Shown in pieces: positions 1,236 to 30,923 of a stretch of 35,042 nucleotides of DNA (positions are counted from its first letter, which is position 1; each line of letters begins with the position of its first letter). The notes under the pieces were generated by a model, which saw only the letters and a program-made list of their open reading frames with translations, made no database searches and was not told the origin of the DNA. Source of the stretch: an uncultured Nitrososphaerota archaeon (GTDB lineage Archaea; Thermoproteota; EX4484-205; JAAOZO01); assembly GCA_964639105.1 (NCBI GenBank), contig CAZXBW010000002.1, forward strand, positions 1 through 35,042, read 5' to 3'. Both the position numbers and the translations under genes were made by a program.

Positions 1236-2294
1236 CTAGGTCATGACATCGTGGCCTGTTCCCGTGACCAAGATTGTGTTCTCCCATCTCGCTCCGGTTA
1301 CTCCTCTTATGTATAGGCCTGGTTCAACGGTAATGACATTACCTGAGACCAACTTCTCCGGATTCTTGCTCGAGACGGAAGGCTCTTCATGTATGTCAAG
1401 GCCCACGCCGTGGCCCAGCCCGTGCAAGATGCCTTCAGAGAATCCCGCCGATGAGAGCATGCGATCAGCCTTCTGCCCCAATTCGTCTATCTTGATTCCA
1501 GGTGCCACAGCTTCCGCGCAGGCATCGTAGGCGCTCTTCACGGAATCAAACACCTTTCGGTTTTGGCCATCTGAAGACCCCACCAGCGCAGTCCTCGTTG
1601 TGTCGGACTTGTAGTGCTCCACGTCAGCACCGAGGTCTATGACGACTAGTTCCCCGTCCACAACTTTCTTCCCTGTCGGCAGAGCATGCGGCAGTGAAGC
1701 CCTCCAACCGGAGCCAATCGATGTTCTGAATGCAAACTCATCCGCCCCTTTCTCCAACATTGCGCACTCGGCTGACATGGCGATGTCCTTCTCCGATACG
1801 CCAGCTTTTGTCCGCTCCAGCGCCGCCCGCATTCCCTCCCTAGCCAGTTCACCGCTCCTTCTCATAAGGCGGATCTCCTCCTCATCCTTGATTGCTCTGA
1901 TCCTTTGGACCATGTTATTTCCTGACTTCACCAAGGCAGGGCACCCCACTCCGGATCTGCCCTCCAGAGGCAAGACATCATCGGCCTCCACGTACGCGTC
2001 TCGGGCCGTCGTGATCCTCCTTTTCAGTTCTTCGAAGATCTCCGCTTCGCTTCGTCCGGTGAACACTTCAACCTCGTCAGATTCCGCGAGGAAGAAGTCC
2101 AACTTGGATCCGAAGACGGACAGATCACCAGACCTGGAGACAGAGAGGACGGTTCGACCCATCGGCCAGACGCCGATGAGATAGAATACGTTGGAGGTCT
2201 CAGATAGCAGGAGTCTGTCAACCGAGGTCTGCTGTAGCAGGTGTGTGAGCTTTCCCAACCTTTCCTTGTTCGGTTGAACTCGAACCAGTTGCAT
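1236..2294 (-). CDS. Xaa-Pro aminopeptidase/dipeptidase, M24 family
   Basis: The M24 pita-bread metal-ligand region is present (VVIDLGADVEHYKSDTTRT, HGLGHGVGLDIHEEP, NVITVEPGLY). The N-terminal creatinase-like region reads DRLLLSETSNVFYLIG. Confidence 0.85.
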   Translation of the reverse strand: MQLVRVQPNKERLGKLTHLLQQTSVDRLLLSETSNVFYLIGVWPMGRTVLSVSRSGDLSVFGSKLDFFLAESDEVEVFTGRSEAEIFEELKRRITTARDAYVEADDVLPLEGRSGVGCPALVKSGNNMVQRIRAIKDEEEIRLMRRSGELAREGMRAALERTKAGVSEKDIAMSAECAMLEKGADEFAFRTSIGSGWRASLPHALPTGKKVVDGELVVIDLGADVEHYKSDTTRTALVGSSDGQNRKVFDSVKSAYDACAEAVAPGIKIDELGQKADRMLSSAGFSEGILHGLGHGVGLDIHEEPSVSSKNPEKLVSGNVITVEPGLYIRGVTGARWENTILVTGTGHDVMT

Positions 2295-2790
2295 CTTCTC
2301 TTCGCTTCAGCAGCTCTTCCATCTCCCTTTTAACTGATTTGGTGTCGCGGCACCCCAGAAGCTTGTTGAATCTGTCCGTCGTCGTCAGCATCGAAGTCCT
2401 GCCGACCTTGGCGGCTTCGACATAGCCTGCCCTCACAAGCTCTTTCACGTGCCCATACGAGTGTCTGCCCCTGATTTGGACCACCATTGACTGCACAATT
2501 GGTTGTTCTACCGCTATGACGGAGAGCGTCTTGGAGGCTCCCTTTGATATCGGGAGGCCAGCGGAGACTTTCTTAGCATGCTCAAAGTACTTGGGCCTCA
2601 CCTGCATGATGTATCGCTCAGCACCGAGTTGCACTATCTCGACTCCCCCCTTCCTGTGCGCATACTCCCCGACAAGGCTCTGAACGCAGGCATCAACGAT
2701 TTCTCCCTTGGATCTCAGAGCCTTCGCCATTTCTTCGGTTGATAGCGGTCTCCCTGCCGCAAACAGCAGAGCCTCGACCGATGCCTTCAT
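2218..2790 (-). CDS. scpB: Segregation and condensation protein B (kite subunit of SMC-ScpAB)
   Basis: The N-terminus VEALLFAAGRPLSTEEMAKAL is typical of ScpB. A second winged helix reads ASKTLSVIAVEQPIVQSMVVQIRG. The gene lies directly downstream of scpA. I prefer ATG 2790, which forms an ATGA overlap with the scpA stop. The ORF also extends to a TTG at 2823. Confidence 0.8.
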   Translation of the reverse strand: MKASVEALLFAAGRPLSTEEMAKALRSKGEIVDACVQSLVGEYAHRKGGVEIVQLGAERYIMQVRPKYFEHAKKVSAGLPISKGASKTLSVIAVEQPIVQSMVVQIRGRHSYGHVKELVRAGYVEAAKVGRTSMLTTTDRFNKLLGCRDTKSVKREMEELLKRREDATGSSSTEQGKVGKAHTPATADLG

Positions 2791-3443
2791 GCCCTCGCTG
2801 GCTGGTTTGTGCTCACTATCCAAAACTGTTCCCCCTTCTTCTCTATTTCGTAGTCCATTGAGCTGAGCACGAACAAGAGTATGATGAATGTCCTAACCAT
2901 CTCGATGTAATCTAGGCCTTCAAACAGTTCCAGTACATCGATCCTCCCGGTGCTCCTCGTAGCGGAGGCAATTCTGTCTCCTAGGGCTTTCACCCTGTTC
3001 TCAACATCCTCCAGAAACAGGTCAGGAACGATCAGGTCCTCCGCGACCTCGGTGCTGCCCACGAACAGTTTCCTTTCCCTCAACGCCCTAGTCAGCAGCT
3101 CCACGAGATCCGAGAACAGTTCAGTCGAGTCGACCACCGGATGTGCTGTCCTCACGGGCAGGTCGATGGGCAGAACAAGTCGATCGTACACTACGGGCTC
3201 CCCTTTGTCCTCGGGTGATCTGGGTGGTTCTTCGAGCTTCAGCAATTCCTCAGTCTTCCTCCTGAATATTATCGCCGATGACAAGAGAGCTACGCCCGAT
3301 CGCTCGAAATCGACATAGCCTCCGGTCCTTATCTGGCTCAGCAGACCCCTTATCGCGGCTGCTATGTCCAGATCCCATACCCTGGCCTTGTAGACGCTGA
3401 GAATGTCGAAAAGCACGTTGAAAGCGGTGGTGACAGAACTCAC
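2787..3443 (-). CDS. scpA: Segregation and condensation protein A (kleisin of SMC-ScpAB)
   Basis: The 218-aa ORF sits between smc and scpB. Its N-terminus is kleisin-like (AFNVLFDILSVYKARVWDLDIAAAI) and its C-terminal winged-helix region reads MVRTFIILLFVLSSMDYEIEKKGEQFWIV. The GTG start forms a GTGA overlap with the smc stop. Confidence 0.75.
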   Translation of the reverse strand: MSSVTTAFNVLFDILSVYKARVWDLDIAAAIRGLLSQIRTGGYVDFERSGVALLSSAIIFRRKTEELLKLEEPPRSPEDKGEPVVYDRLVLPIDLPVRTAHPVVDSTELFSDLVELLTRALRERKLFVGSTEVAEDLIVPDLFLEDVENRVKALGDRIASATRSTGRIDVLELFEGLDYIEMVRTFIILLFVLSSMDYEIEKKGEQFWIVSTNQPARA

Positions 3444-6400
3444 TTTCTCACCCTCTGGCTCGCGACGATCGGCATCTCCATGGCCTTTGATCTACCACCC
3501 TTGATGTAGGTACCTATCAACTTGTCAGCCCCGATGGCCACAACGTCCTTTAGGGAGATGACGAGCAGTTGAGATCCCGATGCACGCATAGAGACCAGCT
3601 TCAGGTAGTTCTGTACATTCCTGGCATCGAGGTGTGCGTCTATTTCGTCGAAGAAGTAGAACGGAGCCGGTCTCAACTGTTGGAGGGCGAATATGAGGCA
3701 GAGGGCAGTCACGGACTTCTCTCCGCCGCTCGACCCGTATACCAACCTCGTCTCCTTTCCCGGGAACTGAACCATGATGCTCAATCCACCTTGGAATGGG
3801 TCTTCGGGCCTTTCGCACTCCAATCTGGCAGATCCGCTGGTGACTTCGTTGAAGTACTCACCAAAACCCTTGTTGACGGTCTGCAATGCCTGAAGGAACG
3901 CCTCTCTCTTGTTACGCTCTATCTCGGCAATCAGATCCAAGATGGCCTTCTTCTCCTCTTCGAGAGTGTTCAGCCTCTGAGAGATCAAGATGTAGTTCTG
4001 AGCCTGTTGGTCGTACTGCTCTCGCGCCAGCTGATTGACCAAGCCCATGCCAACCAGGTCGGACTCCAACTCCTTCACCAGAGTGTCGCAATGCTCTGAG
4101 TCTAGGCTTTCTAGGCTCAACAGCTTTGGCTCCCCTAGAGAGCTGAGTTTCTCCTTGATAGAAGCCATCTCGGTCTCAATCTCGTATTTTCTTCGTTGAG
4201 AGTCGCCTGACTTCGATTGAAGTTCTCTGAACTTCGCGTCGATTTCTTCCATCTGATCCTCAGCTTTCCTGAGCTCACCTGCCAAACGATCTCTGCGTTC
4301 GTCTGCCGATGGTGCGGCTTCTGTCGATTCCTTGAGCTTGTTCTGCAGCTGGGATATTTCTCTGTCGAGATTGCTTCTTGCGTCGGAAAGTTGCCTGATC
4401 TTGACATCTGCCTCTCTCAGAAGATCTGCAGTGCCCGAAATCCTGTCGGTGATCCTCTTTCTATTCTGGATGAGCTCATTCTTCTCCTTCTCCGTCTCGA
4501 TGATCCTCTTCTTCATGTCTCCGAGCTCAGCTTCAATGGCCCGTATCTCCGCATCGAGCTTGGAGGCCCTCCTCTCCGATGAGTTCGTCAGGTTAGTCAT
4601 CTGGGACCTTCTTAACGAGAGATCCTTCCTGACCGCGAGAGTGTCTGTGAGCTTCTTGTTGAGGCTCTTGACCCTCAGATCGATGTCTCTTCGGTTCTTC
4701 CTGAGGGAAAGAATCCGCGCCCTCAGTCCATTGAGCCTCTTCTCTTCTGTCAGCATCTGACCTTCCTCAGCCTTCATTTTGTCCGTGATCTCGTTCAGCA
4801 CCCTGGATGCCGCATTTCTGACCTCCATCACCCTCTCAAGCCAAGAGCTGGCCTCTGTGATGCCCTGTTTCAAGTCGACAATGTTCTTCGAGAGTATCTC
4901 TTCTCTCAGTCTTCTTGCTTCGTAGAGGTCTGCCTCGAGATTTCGGAGTGTCTCAAGGAGTGACGATGGTTTCGCGGCACGTGTTGCTCGCAATCTGGCA
5001 GAGTTCCTCCCGCCAAGGACGAGGCCATCCTTCGTGACTACGCTGAATCCCTTTCCCGAAGCCAGGGCGGCGTCGGTCGAGTCGGACGCCAGTATGAAAT
5101 CTCCTATCCTCGAGTCCAAGAATTCCCCCAGCTCCGGAGGGAATTCCACCATGTCTATCAGCCGGTTATCTCCCTCTTTGTGTATCTCCTTGGGCTCACC
5201 CTCTTTCACCAGCCAAGCCGAGGAGACGCCCACATTTAGAAGCGATATCGAAATAGATGAGGGATCCTCATCCTTTCCGATGACTATCGCATCAGACCAT
5301 TCTCCCAGAGCAGCTGCCAGTGCGGGCTCAACGTCGGGCCTGCATCGCACGAGGTTTTTCAGCAGACCCACGACTGGGATTCCTGCTTCTCTGAGGACAA
5401 GCTCGACCACGTGCGGATCTGATGTTCCGAGTTCAAATGATTCGTCAAGTCTGCCTCTGACCCTCTCCGCTGCGACCTCTAGTTTGGCCATGAGATCCCT
5501 GATCATAATCTCTCCTCTTTCGAGCTTCTCGGCCTTCGCCAAGCTGTTCGCCAGATCTGATCCGAAAGTCTGAGCTTCGCTCGCTATCATCTTCAATCTG
5601 GAAGTCAGCCTGTCCGCTCTTGCCTTCCACCTAAGATACCTCCTCGCATGCAACCTTCTGGCCCCCGATGCCGATCGCTCTTCGCGTTCGAGTTCGCCTA
5701 TTTGTTCGCTGGTTTTCTGCATCTCGAAATCCGCTTGCGATGATTCAGACTGCAGATGAGGGAGCACGCTTTCCACGTCCGCCAGCCTCCTCTGGAGAGA
5801 GTCGGCCTCCCTTCTTCTCGACTCGATGGTCCGCCTGAGTCTATCTCTCTGAGGCAACAGCCTCAGTTGTCTGTTATCCAAGATCCTCGCGCGGGCTTTG
5901 GTGATCTCAGTCCTTCTGCGGAGGCTTCTTATCGTGAGTGATGCCTTTTTCCTATGCATTCTGTCCTCTGCTATCTTGGCTGCCAGATCCTTCTTGTTGC
6001 CTTTGGCCTGCTGAAGAGTCCATTCAGATCGCCCGAGCTCTCCCATCTTGTTCGTTAGCATTCCGGTGAGTTCTGCCGACGTGATCTCAGATGGAGCCTG
6101 TCTGGTCTTATCGATTTCAAGAATGCCATCAAGCAAGATCTTGCGTTGTTCCGTCACTCTCTTCCTTTCTTCGGCTATTCTTTCAAGATCTGACGATAAC
6201 ACATCTGTCTCGGCTGTTATTTCCCCGAATCTCGACTCTCTGCGTCTGAGGTTCTCTAGAAGTATGTGTCTCTTCAATTCATCCGCGACCTCCCTCAAGG
6301 TGTTGAACGCAGTGGCTCGGTTGAACTCGTGCTCGAGTTGCTCGATCCTATTCCTGACTTCGTCGAGCCTGCTCATGGCAACCTTGAGATTCACGTCAGC

Positions 6401-6943
6401 TTCCTTCAGCTCTTCCTCCGCTTGCTTCCTTCTTTCGTCGAAGCTCGAGATGCCCACGGCCTCCTCTATCATTGCTCTGACCTCCTCTGGGCTCTTCTCG
6501 GATATCCGCGAGATCTCTCCTTGGACGACGATGTTGTAGCCTCGCGAACTCAGACCAGCCATGCTCAGCGTGTTCATCACGATTCCTCTCTGCGCTCTCC
6601 TTCTATTCAGGAAGTACTTGCTCTCACCCTTGTCGTCTATGTATCTGGTTATGACTATCTCGTCCTCCTGTGCGGGGATCCTTCTGTCGTGATTGTCTAT
6701 CACCATTCTGACATAATACTTCTGTCCCTTCCCCCTTGCGTTGTCCGATATCAGGCTGGCCAACTTGTCCGCTCTAAGGGCTCTCGTGGAGTTCTCGCCC
6801 ATCACGAACCTGACCGCATCTATCAGGTTGCTTTTCCCAGATCCGTTGGGCCCAGTGATCACACTCAGGCCAGGTGAGAGTCGGATGACAGTCTTGTCCG
6901 AGAATGATTTGAAGCCCTTCAGTTCCAGCCTTGATATGTACAT
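3440..6943 (-). CDS. smc: Chromosome segregation protein SMC (canonical, with hinge)
   Basis: The protein is 1167 aa with Walker A GPNGSGKSN and long coiled-coil arms. A central hinge-like globular region lies around GIPVVGLLKNLVRCRPDVEPALAAALGEW. The signature is SSGGEKSVTAL and Walker B is FYFFDEIDAHLD. Confidence 0.95.
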   Translation of the reverse strand: MYISRLELKGFKSFSDKTVIRLSPGLSVITGPNGSGKSNLIDAVRFVMGENSTRALRADKLASLISDNARGKGQKYYVRMVIDNHDRRIPAQEDEIVITRYIDDKGESKYFLNRRRAQRGIVMNTLSMAGLSSRGYNIVVQGEISRISEKSPEEVRAMIEEAVGISSFDERRKQAEEELKEADVNLKVAMSRLDEVRNRIEQLEHEFNRATAFNTLREVADELKRHILLENLRRRESRFGEITAETDVLSSDLERIAEERKRVTEQRKILLDGILEIDKTRQAPSEITSAELTGMLTNKMGELGRSEWTLQQAKGNKKDLAAKIAEDRMHRKKASLTIRSLRRRTEITKARARILDNRQLRLLPQRDRLRRTIESRRREADSLQRRLADVESVLPHLQSESSQADFEMQKTSEQIGELEREERSASGARRLHARRYLRWKARADRLTSRLKMIASEAQTFGSDLANSLAKAEKLERGEIMIRDLMAKLEVAAERVRGRLDESFELGTSDPHVVELVLREAGIPVVGLLKNLVRCRPDVEPALAAALGEWSDAIVIGKDEDPSSISISLLNVGVSSAWLVKEGEPKEIHKEGDNRLIDMVEFPPELGEFLDSRIGDFILASDSTDAALASGKGFSVVTKDGLVLGGRNSARLRATRAAKPSSLLETLRNLEADLYEARRLREEILSKNIVDLKQGITEASSWLERVMEVRNAASRVLNEITDKMKAEEGQMLTEEKRLNGLRARILSLRKNRRDIDLRVKSLNKKLTDTLAVRKDLSLRRSQMTNLTNSSERRASKLDAEIRAIEAELGDMKKRIIETEKEKNELIQNRKRITDRISGTADLLREADVKIRQLSDARSNLDREISQLQNKLKESTEAAPSADERRDRLAGELRKAEDQMEEIDAKFRELQSKSGDSQRRKYEIETEMASIKEKLSSLGEPKLLSLESLDSEHCDTLVKELESDLVGMGLVNQLAREQYDQQAQNYILISQRLNTLEEEKKAILDLIAEIERNKREAFLQALQTVNKGFGEYFNEVTSGSARLECERPEDPFQGGLSIMVQFPGKETRLVYGSSGGEKSVTALCLIFALQQLRPAPFYFFDEIDAHLDARNVQNYLKLVSMRASGSQLLVISLKDVVAIGADKLIGTYIKGGRSKAMEMPIVASQRVRK

Positions 6944-24191: not shown

Positions 24192-27071
24192 TTGACTCAG
24201 CCCGCTGGGAAGTCCGAGTCTGGTCCATCGGCCGAGGACGAGGCAGTCCTGTCGCTCTTGACAGACCAAGTGAGAGACTCGGTTCTCAAGAGAGACATGC
24301 TTCCAATGACGGAAGTGCAGAGACTTGGGATCCCAGCCGTTCTGAGCGGTCGCAACGTCTTGCTGATCTCACCGACTGGCACAGGCAAGACCGAGGCCGC
24401 CCTCATACCGGTCTTCCATCTGATGAAGGTCTCTGAGGTCAAAAAGAGCGGCTTCAGGGTTCTGTACATAACTCCCTTGAAGGCACTGAACAGGGATCTG
24501 CTTGAGAGGATATCTTGGTGGTCGACCGATCTCGACATCAGCGTCGGTATAAGGCACGGAGACAGCCCCAAGGCAGAGAGGGCTCAGCAATCGATGCAAC
24601 CACCGAACATCATAGTGACGACCCCTGAGACATTCCAGATACTGCTCGTAGGCAAGAGACTCTCGTCTCATCTCAAGGCAGTAGATTGGGTCATCATAGA
24701 TGAGGTACATGAGTTGGCCGAGGAGAAAAGGGGAGCTCAGCTCGTTCTCGGTCTTGAGAGGCTCAGGGAGATCAAGGGATCTGACTTCCAGATCATAGGC
24801 CTGTCCGCAACGGTCGGAGATCCCAAACTGCTCGGGAGTTTCTTGGTCGGCAAAGACAGAGAAGTCAGCATAGTCGAGGCTGCACCAGAGAAGTGGATCG
24901 AAATAGACGTCTCGTTCCCGAAGCCAACGCAAGAAGATTACGAACTATCGCGTGAGACGCTTGAGCATCCAACTGTCCTCGCGAGGTTGAAGTACATCAA
25001 GGAGCAAATCGAAAAGCACGACTCCACGCTGCTCTTCACGAACACCAGGGCCACAGCTGAATCTCTGTCGAACAAATTCATGTTATACGATACGGAGTTG
25101 CCTTTGGCGATCCATCACGGTTCACTGGGCACGACTACTAGACTGATGGCGGAACGCGGTCTCAAAGGGGGGACACTCAAGGGAGTGATCGCTACGTCGA
25201 GCTTGGAGCTGGGCATAGACATCGGGCAGGTGGACTTTGTCGTGCAATACGGGTCTCCGAGACAATCAACTCACCTCATTCAGAGGGTGGGCAGGAGCGG
25301 TCATGGCGTGGGGGAGGTATCTAGAGGAGTAATAGTTGCCATGGACGAGGAGGACCTGATGGAGTCTGTCGTCCTTCGCAACAGGGCTCTCAGGAAGGAC
25401 TTGGAACCGGTCGATCTGTCGTCCAAACCCTTTGATGTTCTGGCGCATCAAGTAGTCGGATATCTGCTCACTAGAGGTAGATCTCACGTGGAGGATCTGA
25501 TCGACCTCGTCAGCAGGGCGACGATATACAAGGACCTCACGCTCGAGGAGCTGGGTTCCGTCCTCGATTTCCTACGAAGCAAGTATCCGTCCATCCTACG
25601 CTACGATCCGCCAAGTGGGATAGTAGTGAGGGGTCGCGGGACGGCAACATACGAGTTCTACTACGATCACCTATCGACGATCCCGGAGGTCAGACAGTAC
25701 CGCGTGATAGACTCCAACACGAAAGACATCGTCGGGATACTAGACGAGGAGTTCGTAGCCGAGAAGGGGATCCAAGGGACAAAGTTCATCATGGCTGGGC
25801 GAGTCTGGGTGATAGAAGCAATAGAAGAAGGGGATGTCAAGGTCACGCCCTCGGACGACCCAACGGGAGCTGTCCCGTTCTGGGCCGGCGAAGAGATACC
25901 GGTGAAGTTCGCGGCAGCAAGGGAACTCGGCGCACTCCGAAGGGAAATCATGGAGATGATATCTGGTGGGATGTCCCAGAAGGAGGCCGCTGAAAATCTG
26001 GGCAACCGAATGCATCTGAAACCCGAATTGATGGAGGAAATGCTCCCGAACATTCGAGACTCGGTCGCTGAGAGGTACCCAGTAGCCACAGACAGAGGCA
26101 TTGTCATAGAGTGCTGGGGTGAGAAACTGATACTCCACGCCTGCAACGGAGATCAGGTCAACTCCGCGCTTGCGAAGATAGTCGGTTCGCTTCTGTCCGA
26201 AAGGGATCACATGGTGAGCACAAGCAGGGATCCGTACAGGATTGTCGTTGATCAGCACGTGGATCCAGCCGAGCTGTTGAATAGGCTCAAATCTCTGAGC
26301 GACAGCCAAACCGAGGAACTCCTCCTCTCTGGAATAGAGTCAGTGGGCATGTTCAAGAGGAGGGTGATCCACGTCGGGAGGAGGTTCGGTGTGATCGAAC
26401 GAGATGCCGATCTGACCTCCATACAGGTGGACAAGTTAGCCTCCATGCTCAAAGGCACGCCTGTTTTCGAGGAGGCGAAGAAGGAACTCTTGCAGAAGGA
26501 CTATGACGCCGAGAAGTTGAAGATCTTCCTATCGGAACTGAGGAACGGAGGCTTGGCAGTCGAGGTGATCGAAGGGCGGGAACTGCCCTCTCCGCTGTCG
26601 CGAGCAGCACTCAGAAGGACTGAGGCGCACGTTGATCTCTTCCCTCCAGACAGGGTCGACAAGATACTCCTGAGGTACGCGCTTGCACGGCTCCGAAGCG
26701 GCATACTGACCTTGATCTGCGCCGAGAACTTGGACTACTTCGAGACGCTTCGCGTCGTGGACATGACTTTTCCGCTGAAGTGCCCGTCTTGCGGTTCCGG
26801 TTATGTCGGGGTAGTACCGGACGAAGACTCAGCGAGGTCAGTGAAATACAGGCCGAAGTCCCGGAAGAGCCAGAGGATCCTTGAAAGAGCCAGGAGGACG
26901 GCCCTGCTGCTTTACAAGCACAGAGAACGAGCGGCTATGGCTCTGGTCGCCAGGAGGGTTCCACTCAAAGATGTTGAGTCAATCCTTGAATCCTCATCTT
27001 CAAAGTCAGATGAGGAGTTTACAAAGGCCATAGGCGACGCAGAGCGAAGGGTGTCTTTCAGAAGCTACTGA
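24192..27071 (+). CDS. lhr: Lhr-type large ATP-dependent DNA helicase (DEAD/DEAH superfamily 2)
   Basis: Helicase motif I is SPTGTGKTEAA, motif II is DEVHE, motif III is SAT and motif VI is QRVGRSGH. The 959-aa protein has a long Lhr-like C-terminal extension that includes the zinc-ribbon-like CPSCGSG. The start is TTG. Confidence 0.85.
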   Translation: MTQPAGKSESGPSAEDEAVLSLLTDQVRDSVLKRDMLPMTEVQRLGIPAVLSGRNVLLISPTGTGKTEAALIPVFHLMKVSEVKKSGFRVLYITPLKALNRDLLERISWWSTDLDISVGIRHGDSPKAERAQQSMQPPNIIVTTPETFQILLVGKRLSSHLKAVDWVIIDEVHELAEEKRGAQLVLGLERLREIKGSDFQIIGLSATVGDPKLLGSFLVGKDREVSIVEAAPEKWIEIDVSFPKPTQEDYELSRETLEHPTVLARLKYIKEQIEKHDSTLLFTNTRATAESLSNKFMLYDTELPLAIHHGSLGTTTRLMAERGLKGGTLKGVIATSSLELGIDIGQVDFVVQYGSPRQSTHLIQRVGRSGHGVGEVSRGVIVAMDEEDLMESVVLRNRALRKDLEPVDLSSKPFDVLAHQVVGYLLTRGRSHVEDLIDLVSRATIYKDLTLEELGSVLDFLRSKYPSILRYDPPSGIVVRGRGTATYEFYYDHLSTIPEVRQYRVIDSNTKDIVGILDEEFVAEKGIQGTKFIMAGRVWVIEAIEEGDVKVTPSDDPTGAVPFWAGEEIPVKFAAARELGALRREIMEMISGGMSQKEAAENLGNRMHLKPELMEEMLPNIRDSVAERYPVATDRGIVIECWGEKLILHACNGDQVNSALAKIVGSLLSERDHMVSTSRDPYRIVVDQHVDPAELLNRLKSLSDSQTEELLLSGIESVGMFKRRVIHVGRRFGVIERDADLTSIQVDKLASMLKGTPVFEEAKKELLQKDYDAEKLKIFLSELRNGGLAVEVIEGRELPSPLSRAALRRTEAHVDLFPPDRVDKILLRYALARLRSGILTLICAENLDYFETLRVVDMTFPLKCPSCGSGYVGVVPDEDSARSVKYRPKSRKSQRILERARRTALLLYKHRERAAMALVARRVPLKDVESILESSSSKSDEEFTKAIGDAERRVSFRSY

Positions 27072-27077
27072 GACTGA

Positions 27078-27626
27078 CTAGGCTCCAAAGACGTACCTCA
27101 GGAGAGATCGGGTGTCTACCTCAACCTTCGCCCTCCAGCCCAGAATGAGCGAATCTCCCTCCTCTTCCAGGTATCCCCACTTGATGTACTTCGATAGAAA
27201 GTTGCGCACTTTCCACTTCGGGAATTTCTGTCTTAGAGTTTCCTCGACTTCTGACCTAGCTGCCTTGTCACCCCTTGAACCTATCGTGGCGAGGCATATC
27301 GTCAGACCTGCCAGCTCGTCCACACTCCATCCTGATGTCTTCGCATCTGATACTTTCAGTGGATCGGTCAACACTAGGACGAATCTGGCTGTGCTGAGAG
27401 TATCCTCTGGGCTGTCCAAGGATAGTTCAGTCCCGTCGTCTCCAACCGCCTTGATGGTGATACCAAGGGGCTCGATTTGAGACCTGAGCACCTTTATCAC
27501 CCTTGAGTAGCCTGAGCCGAGGGAGCGCTTCAGCTCCCACCCCTTGACTCCGGGTATTCTGTGCGACTTGAAGAATAATAGTTGTGCCGCCCGTCGAATC
27601 TTGGCAGGGAAACCGGAGGACTCCAT
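27078..27626 (-). CDS. Tandem winged-helix kite-like protein (ScpB/MukE/Nse3-MAGE class), third gene of the mini-SMC operon
   Basis: The 182-aa protein splits into two halves. The first half reads AAQLLFFKSHRIPGVKGWELKRSLGSGYSRVIKVLRSQIEPLGITIKAV...ARFVLVLT. The second half reads AGLTICLATIGSRGDKAARSEVEETLRQ...KYIKWGYLEEEGDSLILGWRAKVEVDTRSLLRYVFG. These parallel the WH-A and WH-B patterns of the MAGE homology domain (..FLLxKxxxKxPIxxxxxLxxV..xY.. and ..YLEY....YEFxWGPRAxxETSKxKVLxFV). Confidence 0.55.
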   Translation of the reverse strand: MESSGFPAKIRRAAQLLFFKSHRIPGVKGWELKRSLGSGYSRVIKVLRSQIEPLGITIKAVGDDGTELSLDSPEDTLSTARFVLVLTDPLKVSDAKTSGWSVDELAGLTICLATIGSRGDKAARSEVEETLRQKFPKWKVRNFLSKYIKWGYLEEEGDSLILGWRAKVEVDTRSLLRYVFGA

Positions 27627-27627
27627 A

Positions 27628-28368
27628 TCAACTCACTATCGTTACGATACTCTCTGCTTCCGTCGGTCTCTCCTTCGTAGCCCCTTCCTTCGCCACGATC
27701 CAGAACCTCCTCTTGAGGGGTTCCTTCTCGACCACAGCATATCCATACGATAGCATGAAGCTGATGAGCACAGCACGTCGAAGCCTTTCGTTCAGACTGC
27801 CCTCGCCCAACAGTTCCTCATACAGCAACCTTCCACCTCTATTCTGAAGCTCTTCATGCAAACCCAGCATTTCGTCCGAGATGAGTTCATCGTAGGTGAC
27901 CCCAAGGGATTCCAAGCTCTCGCCCAACAGGGGTTCCATCTTCTCGGCACCGATGGTGTAGTCCTTTAGGTTGCTCCAGTATTCGTAGGATCTTCTCATC
28001 ATCTCAAGACTCAACACGTCTCGTCCTGTGCTCGGTCTCCAAGATTGCAGGAAGGCCTCGGCTAGTCTGTCTGTTGAGGATCCCATGACCGCCAGCCTGA
28101 TCAAGAACGGATCGACATAGAGCACCGACGACTTGTCCCTTAGGAATTTGCTCTGGCTGTACACCAGTATCGCAAAGTCGTACAGGGCTTCCATGTCCAG
28201 TTCTATGTGCTTGAACTGCAGGCTTTTCTTGATGAGTTGTCTGAGCCTGGACAAGCGTGGCTCTAGCTGGACCGCGAGCGGATCCGACCCGCTCCTCATG
28301 GCCGAGGACAACTCTACTATGAGGTCCTTGAGTTCCTTCTCAACTTGTCTTTCAGACGTTCTCGACAA
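27628..28368 (-). CDS. Kleisin-like protein (ScpA/Nse4 class), second gene of the mini-SMC operon
   Basis: The 246-aa protein has the C-terminal segment LLYEELLGEGSLNERLRRAVLISFMLSYGYAVVEKEPLKRRFWIV. This aligns by eye with the ScpA C-terminal winged helix encoded in this same window (VLELFEGLDYIEMVRTFIILLFVLSSMDYEIEKKGEQFWIV). The TTG start overlaps the SMC-like gene by 17 nt. The stop lies 1 nt from the kite ATG. Confidence 0.55.
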   Translation of the reverse strand: MSRTSERQVEKELKDLIVELSSAMRSGSDPLAVQLEPRLSRLRQLIKKSLQFKHIELDMEALYDFAILVYSQSKFLRDKSSVLYVDPFLIRLAVMGSSTDRLAEAFLQSWRPSTGRDVLSLEMMRRSYEYWSNLKDYTIGAEKMEPLLGESLESLGVTYDELISDEMLGLHEELQNRGGRLLYEELLGEGSLNERLRRAVLISFMLSYGYAVVEKEPLKRRFWIVAKEGATKERPTEAESIVTIVS

Positions 28369-30139
28369 TGTTGATCACCGAAGTTCCACTCACCTTCTGC
28401 ACAACTATGCCTACTGCTCTGGTGATTGACTTGGGCACTTGGCCAGGAGTCACCACCAAGTATGATGCTTCGGGGTTGTTGTTCGCTTCTTGTTCGACGA
28501 GCTTGAAGAACGTCTCCCTGTTCCGCGGATCCATGTGTATGTCGAATTCATCCAGCGCCCTCAGAGGGGACTGTATGAGTGACTGAAGAGAAAGCATGAA
28601 TGCTATTATGGAGGAACTCCTCTCACCGCCGCTCTGTGTGAAAGAGTTGAGTTCAACGAGTCTGCTTCCACCAAAGCTGACGAGGATCTGGACACCTGCT
28701 TGGTCCATGTCCTCCTGACCGGTAAAGCGGATTTCTCCATCCGCCCCGATGTTTCTCATCTTTTCCTTAAAGGAATCGCTGAGTTGGTCCACGAGCTTGG
28801 CAACCTCTCTTCTCCAAAGCGTCAGAGTCTCGTCAATCTCGCTGAGCACAGACTCCTTGTTCTTCTTGACGGCCAAGGACTTCTGCTCTATGTCGTCGTA
28901 TGTCTTCCTGTAACTCTCATAGATTTGTTCTGCGTTCTCAACAACTGAACCGAGTGTGGCTAGACCAATCTGCGCATCCTCGAGTTCCTTGGTGATCTCC
29001 TCGCGGTTCCTCGTTCGGCTCGGCTTGGGACCCAACTCAGACGCTTTCTTGAGAGCATCCTCTGATGCGTTCTGCGCCGACTTCATGCTTGCCTCCACTT
29101 TGCTCTTGAGTCTTGTCAACAAGGAGAGGTTTCTCTTCAAAATGGCCTCCCTGACTCTTGCTTCCGCATAGCTCTCAACAGTGCGAGTCAGCTCCTGCTT
29201 CGAACGAGACTCCTCGTTTTCTCCAGCATGCCTCGCGGAAGTGGTCAGCTCTTCGACCTCGTTCTGGAACTGCGTCAGCAACCCTGACACGCGCCTTGAC
29301 GCATCTTCGATCCTTGAGCCATACTTGGCCAGCCTTTCACTGATCTGGACGTTCTTCTCGGCCAGCCGATCAACTTCCTGGGACAAACTTGCGTGTTCAG
29401 ACCAAGCTTGCTCGATTTGCAGCTCAGTCATCCTGAGTTTCAGCGAATCCCTCTTCTTGAGCTTCTCAACCTCTCCGTGCCAAGTGTCAAGAGTAGCCTG
29501 TGCTTCAGACAGAAGCGAGGAGAGCTGCTTCTCCTCACTGGCAACCTCTGCTAGCCTGTCTCTCGCCTCTCTTATTCTGTCCCTGAAGTGAGTGAGGCCG
29601 ACGGCTTTCTCTATGGTCTGCAACATGGTCTGAGCAGTCAGAGCCGCTATTTCTTCGACCATGTACTGATGCATTATAATGAACATGTTGTCTGGATCTA
29701 TGCCGAATCTGTTCAGTACATCGTAGATCTCCAACTTCGTGGCTTGTCTAAAGTTCATCTGATGCCAGTATTCGCCGTCTTCCCTGAGATAGCGGGTGAT
29801 GACAAGTTCATCGGTTCTGACCTCAGGTATCGGCCTGGATCCGTTCTGGGCCTTATTGTCGAACACCAGCGTTATCCTCGCGATGTCTTCTCCCCACCTT
29901 ATGAGGTCACTCAGCTTCCTACCTCGCTCCGTGTGAGCTTGGCCCAGCCCAACCGAGAGGCCTAGAAGTATGGAGGACTTTCCAGCTCCGTTCGGGCCCA
30001 AAACGAGATTGAGGCCAGCTGAGATGGGAATTCTAGCATACTTGTATGTCATCAGATTCTCAAGTATGAGTTCCCTTAGCAGTAGTTTGCTCTGCCGTGT
30101 CTGCCCAACTGGCCTCTCGGCTATCACAGTCGGTCTCAA
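28352..30139 (-). CDS. Hinge-less short SMC-like ABC ATPase with Smc5/Smc6-like head motifs
   Basis: The N-terminal head reads LILENLMTYKYARIPISAGLNLVLGPNGAGKSSILLGLSVGLGQAHTERGRKLSDLIRWGEDIARITLVF. About 300 aa of coiled coil follow, with no globular hinge and no cysteine anywhere in the protein. The C-terminal head reads QSGGERSSSIIAFMLSLQSLIQSPLRALDEFDIHMDPRNRETFFKLV...SYLVVTPGQVP. The start is TTG 30139 or, given the TATA position, GTG 30127. Confidence 0.7.
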   Translation of the reverse strand: MRPTVIAERPVGQTRQSKLLLRELILENLMTYKYARIPISAGLNLVLGPNGAGKSSILLGLSVGLGQAHTERGRKLSDLIRWGEDIARITLVFDNKAQNGSRPIPEVRTDELVITRYLREDGEYWHQMNFRQATKLEIYDVLNRFGIDPDNMFIIMHQYMVEEIAALTAQTMLQTIEKAVGLTHFRDRIREARDRLAEVASEEKQLSSLLSEAQATLDTWHGEVEKLKKRDSLKLRMTELQIEQAWSEHASLSQEVDRLAEKNVQISERLAKYGSRIEDASRRVSGLLTQFQNEVEELTTSARHAGENEESRSKQELTRTVESYAEARVREAILKRNLSLLTRLKSKVEASMKSAQNASEDALKKASELGPKPSRTRNREEITKELEDAQIGLATLGSVVENAEQIYESYRKTYDDIEQKSLAVKKNKESVLSEIDETLTLWRREVAKLVDQLSDSFKEKMRNIGADGEIRFTGQEDMDQAGVQILVSFGGSRLVELNSFTQSGGERSSSIIAFMLSLQSLIQSPLRALDEFDIHMDPRNRETFFKLVEQEANNNPEASYLVVTPGQVPKSITRAVGIVVQKVSGTSVINIVENV

Positions 30140-30152
30140 GTTTTGAACTTCG

Positions 30153-30159
30153 TTAAAAA
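30153..30159 (-). promoter_or_regulatory. TATA-like box (TTTTTAA on the minus strand) upstream of the SMC-like gene
   Basis: The box is centred about 29 nt upstream of GTG 30127, which favours that start and a leaderless transcript. Confidence 0.3.
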
Positions 30160-30187
30160 CCTATCTCGACCGTTGTCAGCATTACGG

Positions 30188-30195
30188 TTAATATA
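30188..30195 (+). promoter_or_regulatory. TATA-like box (TTAATATA) about 30 nt upstream of the ATG of the 233-aa gene
   Basis: The box lies in the 82-nt divergent spacer shared with the SMC-like operon. Confidence 0.35.
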
Positions 30196-30221
30196 ACTGG
30201 CTGTCCGAAGATGAGGTACCG

Positions 30222-30923
30222 ATGGTATTAGCTGGCAAGATCTTCAGAGTCGTCGAACAAGTCTCGATAGAGACTATTGCAGAGAAACTGAATGGCTACA
30301 GGAACGAACAGACCATTGAGGGGTCCGACCTGTCCCTGCTGACCGAAATAAAGGACCTGAACTCCACCAAGGATGAACTGTCTGGGATCATATCGAGAGA
30401 TGTCCCCGTAAGGCTGCGTCAGAGGGAGGAACTGGAGGTCACCTTCAGGACAGTCGATACGCCCTTTCTGTTCAGACAGAGAAAACCGGACATGCTGCTG
30501 TTGGTGGCAGAGAGGAAACCTGTCGCAAACGCGATCGCGAACCTGTTCTCGTCTACACTTTTCCTCTCCTTGGGAGGAGTTCTGAACGCCGAGATCACAC
30601 CGAAGACACTGGAATCGTATCACAGAAGGAATCCTGAGGGGACGAAAGTGATGTTCTTCGACGGGCTTGAGATCCCCAACTTGGACAAGATATCACTATA
30701 TGGCCCTTCGATATCAGACACGTCGTTGTATCCGACCTATGTGTCGCAGGGAAGCATTTGGTATGTCGTCGTGACCTCAAGGAAGTACGGCTATGTGGTA
30801 GGAGTGACGAGGGACGCAGTGGTAACCATTTTCAACAGAATGAGCATCGAAGACTTCGTCAGCTTCGTGAAAGACGAGATATTCGAACTGATCGGGACAA
30901 CGAAAGGGCAACCAAGCCACTAG
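30222..30923 (+). CDS. Hypothetical protein (233 aa), divergent from the mini-SMC operon
   Basis: This is a clean ATG ORF with a TATA-like box upstream. I recognise no family or motif. Confidence 0.5.
   Translation: MVLAGKIFRVVEQVSIETIAEKLNGYRNEQTIEGSDLSLLTEIKDLNSTKDELSGIISRDVPVRLRQREELEVTFRTVDTPFLFRQRKPDMLLLVAERKPVANAIANLFSSTLFLSLGGVLNAEITPKTLESYHRRNPEGTKVMFFDGLEIPNLDKISLYGPSISDTSLYPTYVSQGSIWYVVVTSRKYGYVVGVTRDAVVTIFNRMSIEDFVSFVKDEIFELIGTTKGQPSH

Follow-up and report, generated by a model that had tools for sequence, protein, structure and literature searches.

Two SMC operons in one window

The window, a stretch of 35,042 nucleotides from an uncultured Nitrososphaerota archaeon, carries a compact three-gene operon that appears to encode a short SMC-family ATPase, a kleisin and a kite protein. 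A canonical smc-scpA-scpB operon is located approximately 21 kb away. The genes and intergenic elements of the two regions are as follows:

28352-30139 (-): gene of the 595-aa SMC-family ATPase (ORF)
27628-28368 (-): gene of the 246-aa predicted Nse4-type kleisin (ORF)
27078-27626 (-): gene of the 182-aa predicted Nse1/Nse3-type kite (ORF)
30140-30221 (no strand): divergent intergenic region of 82 nt, read directly from the sequence
30153-30159 (intergenic): TATA-like box TTTTTAA, read directly
30186-30194 (intergenic): TATA-like box TTATATTAA, read directly
30222-30923 (+): gene of a conserved 233-aa protein, head-to-head with the ATPase gene
24192-27071 (+): gene of a 959-aa Lhr-type SF2 helicase (Pfam DEAD, Helicase_C, WH_Lhr, DEAD_assoc)
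2218-6943 (-): canonical smc-scpA-scpB operon, for the probably paralogous complex of the same genome
3440-6943 (-): canonical SMC, 1167 aa, with Pfam SMC_hinge at residues 524-625
2787-3443 (-): ScpA-like protein, 218 aa, with a weak SMC_ScpA match (E 0.007)
2218-2823 (-): ScpB (PF04079, E 4.5e-33)

The ATPase and kleisin genes overlap by 17 nt, while a gap of 1 nt separates the kleisin gene from the kite gene (ORF coordinates); the three genes are translationally coupled, and the arrangement agrees with the three coupled minus-strand genes described in the initial annotation. The ATPase could start at GTG 30127 (591 aa) instead of TTG 30139, as is called for its closest relatives. In the divergent intergenic region, both TATA-like boxes are kept in the closest relative (L001), with AT-rich boxes in other relatives, and the two may be archaeal promoters that drive leaderless transcription to either side. 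The GC content is uniform over the whole window and a search of 2.9 million viral contigs returned a single weak match, on which basis the locus appears to be chromosomal and not mobile.

The canonical operon had also been recognized initially, and its presence with an identical gene order (SMC-kleisin-kite) is borne out by the SMC_hinge and PF04079 matches. Searched against PDB sequences, the canonical SMC retrieves prokaryotic Smc at the top (325 bits), followed by Smc2/3/1/4, with no Smc5/6 among the matches at E<1e-20 in this control search. Its signature motif reads SSGGEK, as opposed to QSGGER in the 595-aa ATPase.

The short ATPase and its partners

The motifs of the ATPase and the domains of the kleisin are located at the following positions:

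29975-29998 (-): Walker A (P-loop) GPNGAGKS, ATPase residues 48-55 (from the translation)
29201-29242 (-): apex loop, about ATPase residues 300-313 (SARHAGENEESRS), standing where a hinge would be
28619-28636 (-): ABC signature QSGGER, ATPase residues 502-507
28547-28564 (-): Walker B LRALDE, ATPase residues 526-531
28042-28362 (-): kleisin N-terminal helical domain, residues 3-109 (AF2)
27691-27894 (-): kleisin C-terminal winged-helix domain, residues 159-226 (region aligned with Nse4)

The 595-aa protein matches Pfam SMC_N with 93 bits and, partially, NCBIfam SMC_prok_A with 183 bits. When the head alone is compared with PDB sequences, yeast Smc5 (107 bits) ranks above Smc6 (77-79), prokaryotic Smc (74) and Smc4 (49), and the top ten matches of this search, in which the coiled coil is omitted, are all Smc5 or Smc6; the family profile gives the same order, with 204 bits for Smc5, 191 for Smc6 and 166 for prokaryotic Smc. 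Yeast Smc5 excepted, the margin of Smc5/6 over prokaryotic Smc is modest in the ranking of head scores, by which the head of this intact SMC-family ABC ATPase appears to be closest to Smc5/Smc6. The Walker A, signature and Walker B motifs, which the initial annotation had described as kept, are indeed invariant over 28 diverse relatives (alignment A4). This applies to G48, P49, N50, G51, G53, K54 and S55 of Walker A, to the Q-loop (Q158), to the signature, which aligns with the identical string in yeast Smc5, and to D530 and E531 of Walker B, as well as to the Walker B/D-loop (L526-D533) and H535 of the H-loop just downstream. The ATPase head is only ~27-28% identical to that of canonical SMC (BLASTP).

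The half-length build without hinge or zinc hook was likewise confirmed, since SMC_hinge is matched neither by the 595-aa protein nor by any of the 28 relatives, and the protein contains no cysteine at all, so that a CxxC zinc hook is impossible. BLASTP aligns it to the ends of the canonical SMC only (residues 20-265 and 835-1147), and thus the middle ~570 residues are absent. The head is followed by two antiparallel coiled-coil arms of ~140 residues, with no proline at residues 150-370, and by an apex loop in which the hydrophobic 3.5-residue periodicity falls off and a glycine is located at position 306. This loop is not conserved, and the length variation of the relatives (571-694 aa) consists entirely of indels within it (alignment A4). 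Complete ATPases measure 572-684 aa throughout and carry no hinge domain. The arms of the window ATPase end in a variable loop with neither hinge nor zinc hook.

The kleisin and the kite of the window have no direct family match in Pfam, NCBIfam or PADLOC and were assigned through family profiles and predicted structures. The kleisin family profile (113 sequences) matches human NSE4/EID3 (E 4e-7) and yeast Nse4 (E 4.5e-6) among PDB sequences, and the N- and C-terminal pieces of ScpA at E ~0.1 in the correct order; Pfam Nse4_C is found in 64 of the 113 members (best E 7e-9). The AF2 model (pLDDT 85) has a kleisin-like architecture, for which Foldseek places Nse4, Rad21 and the ScpA C-terminal domain on top, albeit weakly (E 0.016 or worse). 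The N-terminal domain is composed of helices 3-25, 35-48, 52-83, 87-96 and 99-109, most of it modelled at a pLDDT higher than 90, and the family profile matches the N-terminal domain of ScpA (6ivh_A) there, though weakly. In local Foldseek comparisons the winged helix has a target-normalised TM-score of 0.76 with the C-domain of B. subtilis ScpA and of 0.68 with Scc1-C. An alignment of the C-terminus with the ScpA winged helix had been proposed initially; it holds weakly for residues 145-215 of the window's ScpA (hhalign, E 5.8e-4, probability 29%), but Nse4 is the better match. The 246-aa protein is thus predicted to be an Nse4-type kleisin in which a flexible middle connects N-terminal helices with a C-terminal winged helix.

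The AF2 model of the 182-aa protein (pLDDT 87, pTM 0.71) displays tandem winged helices, and its best Foldseek matches in the PDB are 5hvq_C of the Nse1/MAGE-G1 complex (E 7e-6) and Nse3 (7dg2_C, E 9e-6), followed by Nse1 (7dg2_A, E 1e-4), ScpB (6e-3) and MukE (8e-3). Nse3 also ranks first in the sequence-profile search, where it does not reach significance (E 0.2), and no sequence similarity to the window's ScpB was detected. The protein, which has one cysteine and no RING finger, is therefore modelled as an Nse1/Nse3-type tandem winged-helix kite.

Conservation and neighbouring genes

Relatives of the kite are present in 392 species-level genomes, mostly of Thermoproteota. Among the best 80 loci of these relatives, 55 carry the complete colinear triad and six more carry it with the ATPase cut or split, and in 77 the kleisin gene directly adjoins the kite gene, mostly with an overlap. 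The co-conservation raised in the initial annotation is thus seen in 61 of the best 80 loci, but the closest relatives belong to Thermoproteota and not to Thermoplasmatota. Loci sampled in all six remaining kleisin sequence clusters have the same layout wherever the contig extends far enough, with complete ATPases of 572-666 aa. The operon is kept as a chromosomal single-locus unit over Thermoproteota lineages and some others.

Two neighbouring genes recur. The Lhr helicase, which bears a CPSC motif near its C-terminus, is encoded tail-to-tail with the kite gene, the two ends being 6 nt apart. Among 63 genome loci long enough to show it, 23 have its gene downstream (directly convergent in 16), as do the remote kleisin-clade loci L081, L083, L085/86, L090/91 and L092, but it is missing beside the operon at L096/L097 and at most Bathyarchaeia loci. 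The connection is one of association only, and the gene is convergent and not co-transcribed. Of 54 loci with enough flanking sequence, 31 carry a homologue of the 233-aa protein in the flank, and in about 20 its gene is directly divergent. Neither singly nor as a 28-sequence profile does this protein have a significant match in Pfam, NCBIfam or PDB sequences, the best being Pfam RESC1_2 (E 0.016; 14.6 bits, with the cut-off at 27).

Relation to known SMC complexes

"SMC5/6-related" SMCs of archaea were defined by Yoshinaga and Inagaki, mostly in the TACK superphylum, and occur together with canonical SMC in 44 of 80 genomes (Yoshinaga and Inagaki, 2021; PMC8665677). In TACK and Asgard archaea, separate operons that adjoin canonical ones are described in a preprint of 2024-25 (van Hooff et al., bioRxiv 10.1101/2024.01.07.573240); they combine the gene of an SMC5/6-related SMC with genes for a kleisin related to Nse4 and a kite resembling Nse1/3. 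The published complexes share with the window operon an SMC nearer to Smc5/6 than to canonical SMC, the types of kleisin and kite, the order SMC-kleisin-kite, a mainly TACK distribution and the frequent position beside smc-scpA-scpB; they do not appear to differ in kind. In view of both papers the claim of an undescribed archaeal system is not supported, and the window operon appears instead to be a further example of the type published from comparative genomics. The searchable text of the two sources makes no mention of the ~600-aa hinge-less build, nor of the recurrent Lhr and 233-aa neighbours.

The Smc5/6-like character suggested initially is supported in concert by the head search, the Nse4 profile and the kite Foldseek result, and the product of the three genes is probably an archaeal SMC-kleisin-kite complex of the Smc5/6 type and a paralogue of the canonical Smc-ScpAB. 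In eukaryotic Smc5/6 the head is the most similar to that of the window ATPase, including QSGGER, Nse4 aligns with the C-terminal domain of the kleisin, and the fold of Nse1/Nse3 matches the kite. By contrast, the eukaryotic complex has an Smc5+Smc6 pair of ~1100 aa each and two kites, whereas the window encodes one hinge-less ATPase of ~595 aa (presumably a homodimer) and one RING-less kite; no Nse2 or Nse5/6 was recognized near the operon. Smc-ScpAB has the same three-part logic, gene order, ATPase fold and motifs, its ScpA winged helix aligns weakly with the kleisin, and ScpB is also a tandem winged-helix protein. However, only Smc has a hinge, the arms of the short ATPase are much shorter, and ScpB ranks far below Nse1/3 in the fold search with the kite. 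A cluster of "hinge-less SMC" from ocean metagenomes, assigned to Actinomycetes, likewise lacks hinge and CxxC hook, but is bacterial and of a lineage unrelated to the archaeal family; the word "kleisin" does not occur in the text of that paper (PMC12153180).

MukBEF, Wadjet (JetABCD) and Lamassu also combine an SMC-like ATPase with kleisin-like and kite-like subunits (MukF/MukE, JetA/JetB), and defence systems typically have short-armed SMC-like ATPases. A Wadjet/MksBEFG- or Lamassu-like system directed against plasmids or viruses, which it would sense and restrict, is nevertheless unlikely here. The ATPase has generic SMC-like PADLOC matches to mad3 (75 bits), LmuB (42) and JetC (26), and human Smc5/6 itself restricts extrachromosomal DNA according to a review (PMC10586767), but kleisin and kite have no PADLOC matches and are most similar to Nse4 and Nse1/3, not to MukF or MukE, the latter reaching only E 8e-3 in the fold search with the kite. 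Furthermore, no JetD/MksG/LmuA-type nuclease is encoded within or beside the operon, the neighbours are of housekeeping type, and the locus occurs as a fixed, syntenic single copy in hundreds of species genomes, with even GC and near-absence from viral contigs instead of a patchy, island-like spread. It is quite improbable that the short ATPase forms no homodimeric complex of its own but acts as a partner or regulator of the canonical SMC, or has subunits in common with it. The two operons do lie within 21 kb of each other and a hinge-less ATPase has no obvious route to self-dimerisation, but the short ATPase possesses a dedicated, translationally coupled kleisin and kite, its head is merely ~27-28% identical to that of the canonical SMC, and the operons are separate, from which the published analysis favours two separate homodimeric complexes (PMC8665677; bioRxiv 10.1101/2024.01.07.573240).

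A stand-alone protein of the ASRP (coalescin ClsN, Sph1/2), arcadin-4 or Rad50 kind, with the small genes as unrelated neighbours, is very improbable. Like the window ATPase, ASRPs are archaeal SMC-superfamily ATPases of ~600 aa in which the coiled coils are short and an SMC hinge is missing. The window ATPase has weak NCBIfam matches to ASRP (41 bits), Rad50 (65) and arcadin-4 (20). All three fall far short of the respective family cut-offs, which range from 300 to 1000 bits and stand at 300 for ASRP, however, and most ASRPs carry an apex zinc-hook CxxC, as does Rad50, which is impossible without cysteine, and lack consensus flanking genes, whereas the partners of the window ATPase are independently assigned as Nse4-like kleisin and Nse1/3-like kite and accompany it in nearly all loci; scores, cysteine content and dedicated partners together contradict this reading. 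A functionless, decaying and internally deleted duplicate of the canonical operon, as the missing middle ~570 residues might suggest, is scarcely credible and is contradicted by conservation: the short length (572-684 aa) is kept throughout the lineages sampled, the ATPase motifs are invariant without exception, the translational coupling is retained, and the partners are of Nse4 and Nse1/3 type, not of ScpA/ScpB type.

For the Smc5/6-type complex, a mode of action can be proposed by analogy with Smc-ScpAB and Smc5/6-Nse1/3/4. Two ATPase heads would engage over two ATP molecules, and a single kleisin would bridge them by binding one ATPase at the neck through its N-terminal domain and the other at the head cap through its winged helix. 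The kite dimer would be positioned on the kleisin middle, and the whole complex would clamp DNA atop the engaged heads. With no hinge through which the arms could form a long closed ring, long-range loop extrusion may be less likely than the action of a short-armed clamp or tether that is gated by ATP and acts on DNA. Speculatively, the recurrence of the Lhr helicase gene next to the operon and the functions of the eukaryotic Smc5/6 complex would point most to a part in DNA repair or in the processing of replication forks.

The short SMC operon and its neighbours

The operon at 27078-30139 codes for an SMC-type ATPase, which is intact, together with a kleisin of the Nse4 type and a kite of the Nse1/3 type; the three are both co-encoded and co-conserved. 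Its genes, their two neighbours and the canonical SMC operon, from which it is separate, are arranged in the window as follows:

2218-2823, minus strand: canonical ScpB (PF04079, E 4.5e-33)
2787-3443, minus strand: ScpA-like protein, 218 aa (weak SMC_ScpA match, E 0.007)
3440-6943, minus strand: canonical SMC, 1167 aa (Pfam SMC_hinge at residues 524-625)
24192-27071, plus strand: Lhr-type SF2 helicase, 959 aa, tail to tail with the kite gene and ending 6 nt from it
27078-27626, minus strand: ORF of the Nse1/3-type kite, 182 aa
27628-28368, minus strand: ORF of the Nse4-type kleisin, 246 aa
28352-30139, minus strand: ORF of the short SMC-family ATPase, 595 aa
30153-30159 and 30186-30194: two TATA-like boxes in the 82-nt divergent intergenic region between the ATPase gene and the gene of a 233-aa protein
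30222-30923, plus strand: conserved 233-aa protein, head to head with the ATPase gene

The ORFs are packed as described in the initial annotation, with an overlap of 17 nt between ATPase and kleisin and a gap of 1 nt between kleisin and kite, and the canonical operon named there exists and has the same gene order. The canonical ScpA is very divergent and was assigned by its position between smc and scpB; its sole match, the Pfam one, is sub-threshold and covers the N-terminus, and NCBIfam gave none. The GC content (0.49-0.55) is even along the window, and neither tRNA genes, in a tRNA scan, nor Rfam families at the gathering threshold were detected in 1-35042. The start of the ATPase gene is ambiguous, since TTG 30139 yields 595 aa and GTG 30127 yields 591 aa; the ATPases of the closest relatives are called from the start equivalent to GTG 30127. 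Both TATA-like boxes are conserved in the closest related locus (L001), and their spacing would fit leaderless divergent transcripts together with the GTG start.

In the helicase the domains DEAD, Helicase_C, WH_Lhr and DEAD_assoc are combined with a C-terminal CPSC motif, as in the aLhr1 group (PMC8301817). Of the 63 genome loci with room for it, 23 have an Lhr gene downstream (directly convergent in 16), and so do five remote kleisin-clade locus groups; the gene is missing in most Bathyarchaeia loci and in L096 and L097. According to the phylogenetic study of Lhr, the genes around alhr1 are not conserved across the full set of archaeal genomes that it covered, and the words "Lhr" and "helicase" are absent from the main text of a preprint on archaeal SMC operons (van Hooff et al., bioRxiv 10.1101/2024.01.07.573240). 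A homologue of the 233-aa protein is present in the flank of 31/54 loci from several archaeal classes, about 20 times directly divergent. Neither alone nor as a profile did this protein give a significant match in Pfam, NCBIfam or PDB sequences; several of its residues are invariant (K6, T77, K99, N103, H134, K142, W180 and R197).

Relationship of the three subunits to Smc5/6

The ATPase matches Pfam SMC_N (93 bits) and, with partial model coverage, NCBIfam SMC_prok_A (183 bits), and the residues of its Walker A, Q-loop, signature, Walker B, D-loop and H-loop do not vary within the family, so that the initial description of an SMC-like protein with intact catalytic motifs holds. When the full protein was compared with solved structures, yeast Smc5 was the best match (E 1e-28), and prokaryotic Smc and Smc6 came next. 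Because coiled coils can inflate full-length scores, the search was repeated with the head only (residues 20-172 joined to 445-595), whereupon Smc5 or Smc6 filled all of the top ten places among PDB sequences: yeast Smc5 scored 107 bits, Smc6 77-79, human Smc5 76, archaeal and bacterial Smc 74, Smc4 49 and Smc3 40. With a profile of 28 family sequences the order was Smc5 (204 bits), Smc6 (191), prokaryotic Smc (166) and Smc2 (141), and the aligned family profile and Smc5 have the QSGGER signature in common. As a control, the canonical SMC of the window retrieved prokaryotic Smc with 325 bits and no Smc5/6 at E<1e-20 in the search of PDB sequences. This ranking of scores suggests that the ATPase is nearer to Smc5 and Smc6 than to canonical SMC or SMC1-4.

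Only through family profiles and predicted structures could the two small proteins be assigned. On its own the kleisin has no significant family match in Pfam, NCBIfam or PADLOC, and the kite likewise gave nothing significant in these scans; Pfam SMC_ScpA and SMC_ScpB are found in neither. The kleisin has 13 close homologues, and when 1.84 billion representative proteins were searched with a profile, 167 related clusters of ~230-280 aa emerged. A 12-sequence profile retrieved nothing from PDB sequences, and a 113-sequence profile was required, which over the C-terminal winged helix matched both NSE4/EID3 from human (E 4e-7) and Nse4 from yeast (E 4.5e-6), and more weakly the N- and C-terminal fragments of ScpA (E ~0.1) at the corresponding ends; Pfam Nse4_C was detected in 64 of the 113 members. 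In the AlphaFold2 model (pLDDT 85), residues 3-109 form an N-terminal helical domain and residues 159-226 a C-terminal winged helix, with a linker of low confidence at 137-150. For this protein Foldseek ranked Nse4, Rad21, ScpA-C and Scc1-C at the top, with weak E-values since kleisins are extended proteins. Via its family profile the protein is identified as an Nse4-related kleisin. The likeness of its C-terminus to the ScpA winged helix, as first noticed, survives in a marginal hhalign match to the window's own ScpA (E 5.8e-4, probability 29%), but Nse4 matches better.

Among the 39 clusters of kite homologues the sole functional label is a single "ArsR family regulator". The kite is modelled as a tandem winged helix (AlphaFold2, pLDDT 87, pTM 0.71), with a single cysteine and no extra domain, and only one kite gene is present. 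Foldseek against the PDB placed Nse1/MAGE-G1 and Nse1-Nse3-Nse4 complexes on top (E 7e-6 to 1e-4, TM ~0.63), ahead of ScpB (6e-3) and MukE (8e-3), confirming the kite-like fold proposed from the sequence with Nse1/Nse3 as its nearest matches by fold. In the sequence profile search Nse3 was the top match, at a non-significant level, and hhalign showed no significant sequence similarity to the window's own ScpB. The predicted fold thus identifies the protein as a kite of the Nse1/3 type rather than of the ScpB or MukE type.

Hinge-less architecture and conservation of the operon

Canonical SMC proteins are ~1100-1200 aa long, with arms of ~50 nm. In a BLASTP alignment with the canonical SMC of the window, the short ATPase covers residues 20-265 and 835-1147 at 27-28% identity, so that residues 266-834 (~570, including the hinge) have no counterpart. 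Pfam SMC_hinge, which the canonical SMC matches, was found neither in the ATPase nor in any of 28 diverse relatives, and the space between the arms is too small to hold a globular domain. The ATPase has no cysteine at all, and therefore a zinc hook is impossible, as well as no proline in residues 150-370; the claim that both hinge and hook are missing is borne out on each count. Both arms have helix-type periodicity, which breaks at ~300-313 and at a conserved GPKP kink (370-373). The apex is not conserved, and all length differences among the relatives (571-694 aa) are indels located there, whereas the coiled coil next to the head shows strong conservation, as would be expected of a neck that binds partners. 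Complete related ATPases in the sampled loci measure 572-684 aa, compared with 595 aa in the window.

A scan with the kite motif, using one genome per species, found relatives in at least 392 species-level genomes. The best 80 of the 392 belong to Thermoproteota, broadly defined (Bathyarchaeia, Nitrososphaerota, Brockarchaeota, Methanomethylicia and Thermofilaceae); a Thermoproteota MAG with 93% identity is the nearest. In the loci of these 80 genomes the three genes are co-conserved, with 55 complete colinear triads of ATPase, kleisin and kite and 6 more in which the ATPase is cut or split (61 in total), and the kleisin gene adjoins that of the kite in 77, mostly with an overlap. The complete ATPases of the 80 loci measure 573-684 aa. 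The kleisin family was also clustered into seven groups, and contigs representing the remaining six were looked up; every such contig that was long enough had the triad layout, and short ATPases only were encountered, the complete ones being 572-666 aa long. One ATPase gene per operon is present in the window and in all related loci.

In a subgroup of Brockarchaeota and Nitrososphaerota loci (L004, L006, L011, L012 and L014) the ATPase gene is uncoupled, lying ~1.4-2 kb off and often on the opposite strand, with the kleisin-kite pair intact; the genes in between are not related from one locus to the next. An extra conserved subunit between ATPase and kleisin was considered and discarded, because the genes inserted in L004 and L014 differ. 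On two other contigs (L087:687-2461 and L088) an FrhB/FdhB-like gene, not an SMC ATPase, precedes a remote Nse4_C-bearing relative of the kleisin (P0299); these contigs are short, and the triad layout may not hold there.

Known systems, proposed mode of action and meaning

The initial annotation was right in recognising an SMC-kleisin-kite operon of Smc5/6-like character, but it overstated the novelty in regarding this as an undescribed archaeal system. Yoshinaga and Inagaki (2021; PMC8665677), whose survey kept proteins of 500-1500 aa, defined "SMC5/6-related" archaeal SMCs, 66/80 of them in TACK, with canonical SMC also in 44/80 genomes. Operons combining an SMC5/6-related SMC, an Nse4-related kleisin and an Nse1/3-like kite were described from Bathyarchaeota, Caldarchaeales, Thermoplasmata and Asgard archaea, with example proteins including SOJC01000029.1_1-3 and NZ_CP042905.1_495-497 and with kleisin and kite adjacent in 31/31 cases (van Hooff et al., bioRxiv 10.1101/2024.01.07.573240). 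The type of system is therefore already described at the level of comparative genomics, and the window, with the SMC, both partner types and the co-localised operon, holds another example of it. None of the assembly accessions of the loci compared here is in the preprint's table, and identity with the published family is suggested by matching features, taxa and operon layout. In the preprint's main text "shorter" and "truncated" do not occur and "hinge" is used only for general SMC architecture; neither "hinge" nor "shorter" was found in its supplements. The family-wide hinge-less build and the two recurrent neighbours are useful additions that apparently have not been reported.

The operon differs from canonical SMC systems in hinge, length, long arms and ScpA/ScpB partners. 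Eukaryotic Smc5/6 has two SMCs (Smc5 and Smc6) as opposed to the one ATPase gene here, and neither the Nse1 RING, the Nse2 SUMO ligase, Nse5/6 nor any other recognisable subunit of that kind was seen in the operon or its flanks. [quoted passage not shown] The cluster of a paper on a "hinge-less SMC" is bacterial and unrelated. A defence system of the Wadjet, MksBEFG or Lamassu kind was also considered. The PADLOC matches of the ATPase are weak, kleisin and kite have none, no nuclease gene of the JetD, MksG or LmuA type is adjacent in the window or the relatives examined, and the even GC, the conserved triads and the near absence from viral contigs make such a role unlikely. The collection of 2.9 million viral contigs held one weak partial kite match (L094:6001-6222, IMGVR_UViG_3300005434_000002; 32% identity over ~59 residues). 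Cooperation with the canonical SMC, which is encoded in the same window, and a decaying duplicate, set beside the invariant motifs, are likewise less likely than a distinct complex with its own kleisin and kite.

By analogy with solved Smc-ScpAB and Smc5/6-Nse1/3/4 complexes, ATP would drive engagement of the heads, the kleisin would asymmetrically bridge two heads at neck and cap, a kite dimer would sit on the kleisin middle, and DNA would be clamped on the heads. As the hinge is missing and the apex varies, closure of a long ring by the arms cannot be taken for granted. More plausible than long-range loop extrusion, though speculative, is that the complex serves repair or fork processing as a short-range clamp or tether, and the link to Lhr would point in this direction as well. 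That all sampled members of the family are hinge-less machines with arms of ~20 nm, yet retain a dedicated kleisin and kite, is a tentative and rather doubtful reading. If it is true, kleisin- and kite-assisted clamping of DNA by the heads would work without a hinge-closed ring, and would have done so over very long evolutionary times. The archaeal Smc5/6 stem would then have been short-armed, with hinge and long arms regained or kept only in eukaryotes or Asgard archaea; alternatively, TACK archaea would have lost both once, early. The complex would form a repair module with the adjacent aLhr1-type helicase and the 233-aa protein, an echo of the Smc5/6-helicase partnerships known from eukaryotes.

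Smc5/6 is the least understood of the eukaryotic SMC complexes, and its origin is debated. Among natural models for the core of a complex of the Smc5/6 type, the small archaeal three-gene operon, with one ATPase of ~600 aa, one Nse4-like kleisin and one Nse1/3-like kite, is the simplest. Because it lacks a hinge, one could test directly for which SMC activities heads, kleisin and kite suffice and for which a closed ring with long arms is required; candidate activities are DNA clamping, regulation of the ATPase through its two partners and, perhaps, tethering. The Lhr helicase and the 233-aa protein are concrete candidates for functional partners, and the significance extends beyond this window to a family spread over hundreds of species-level genomes.
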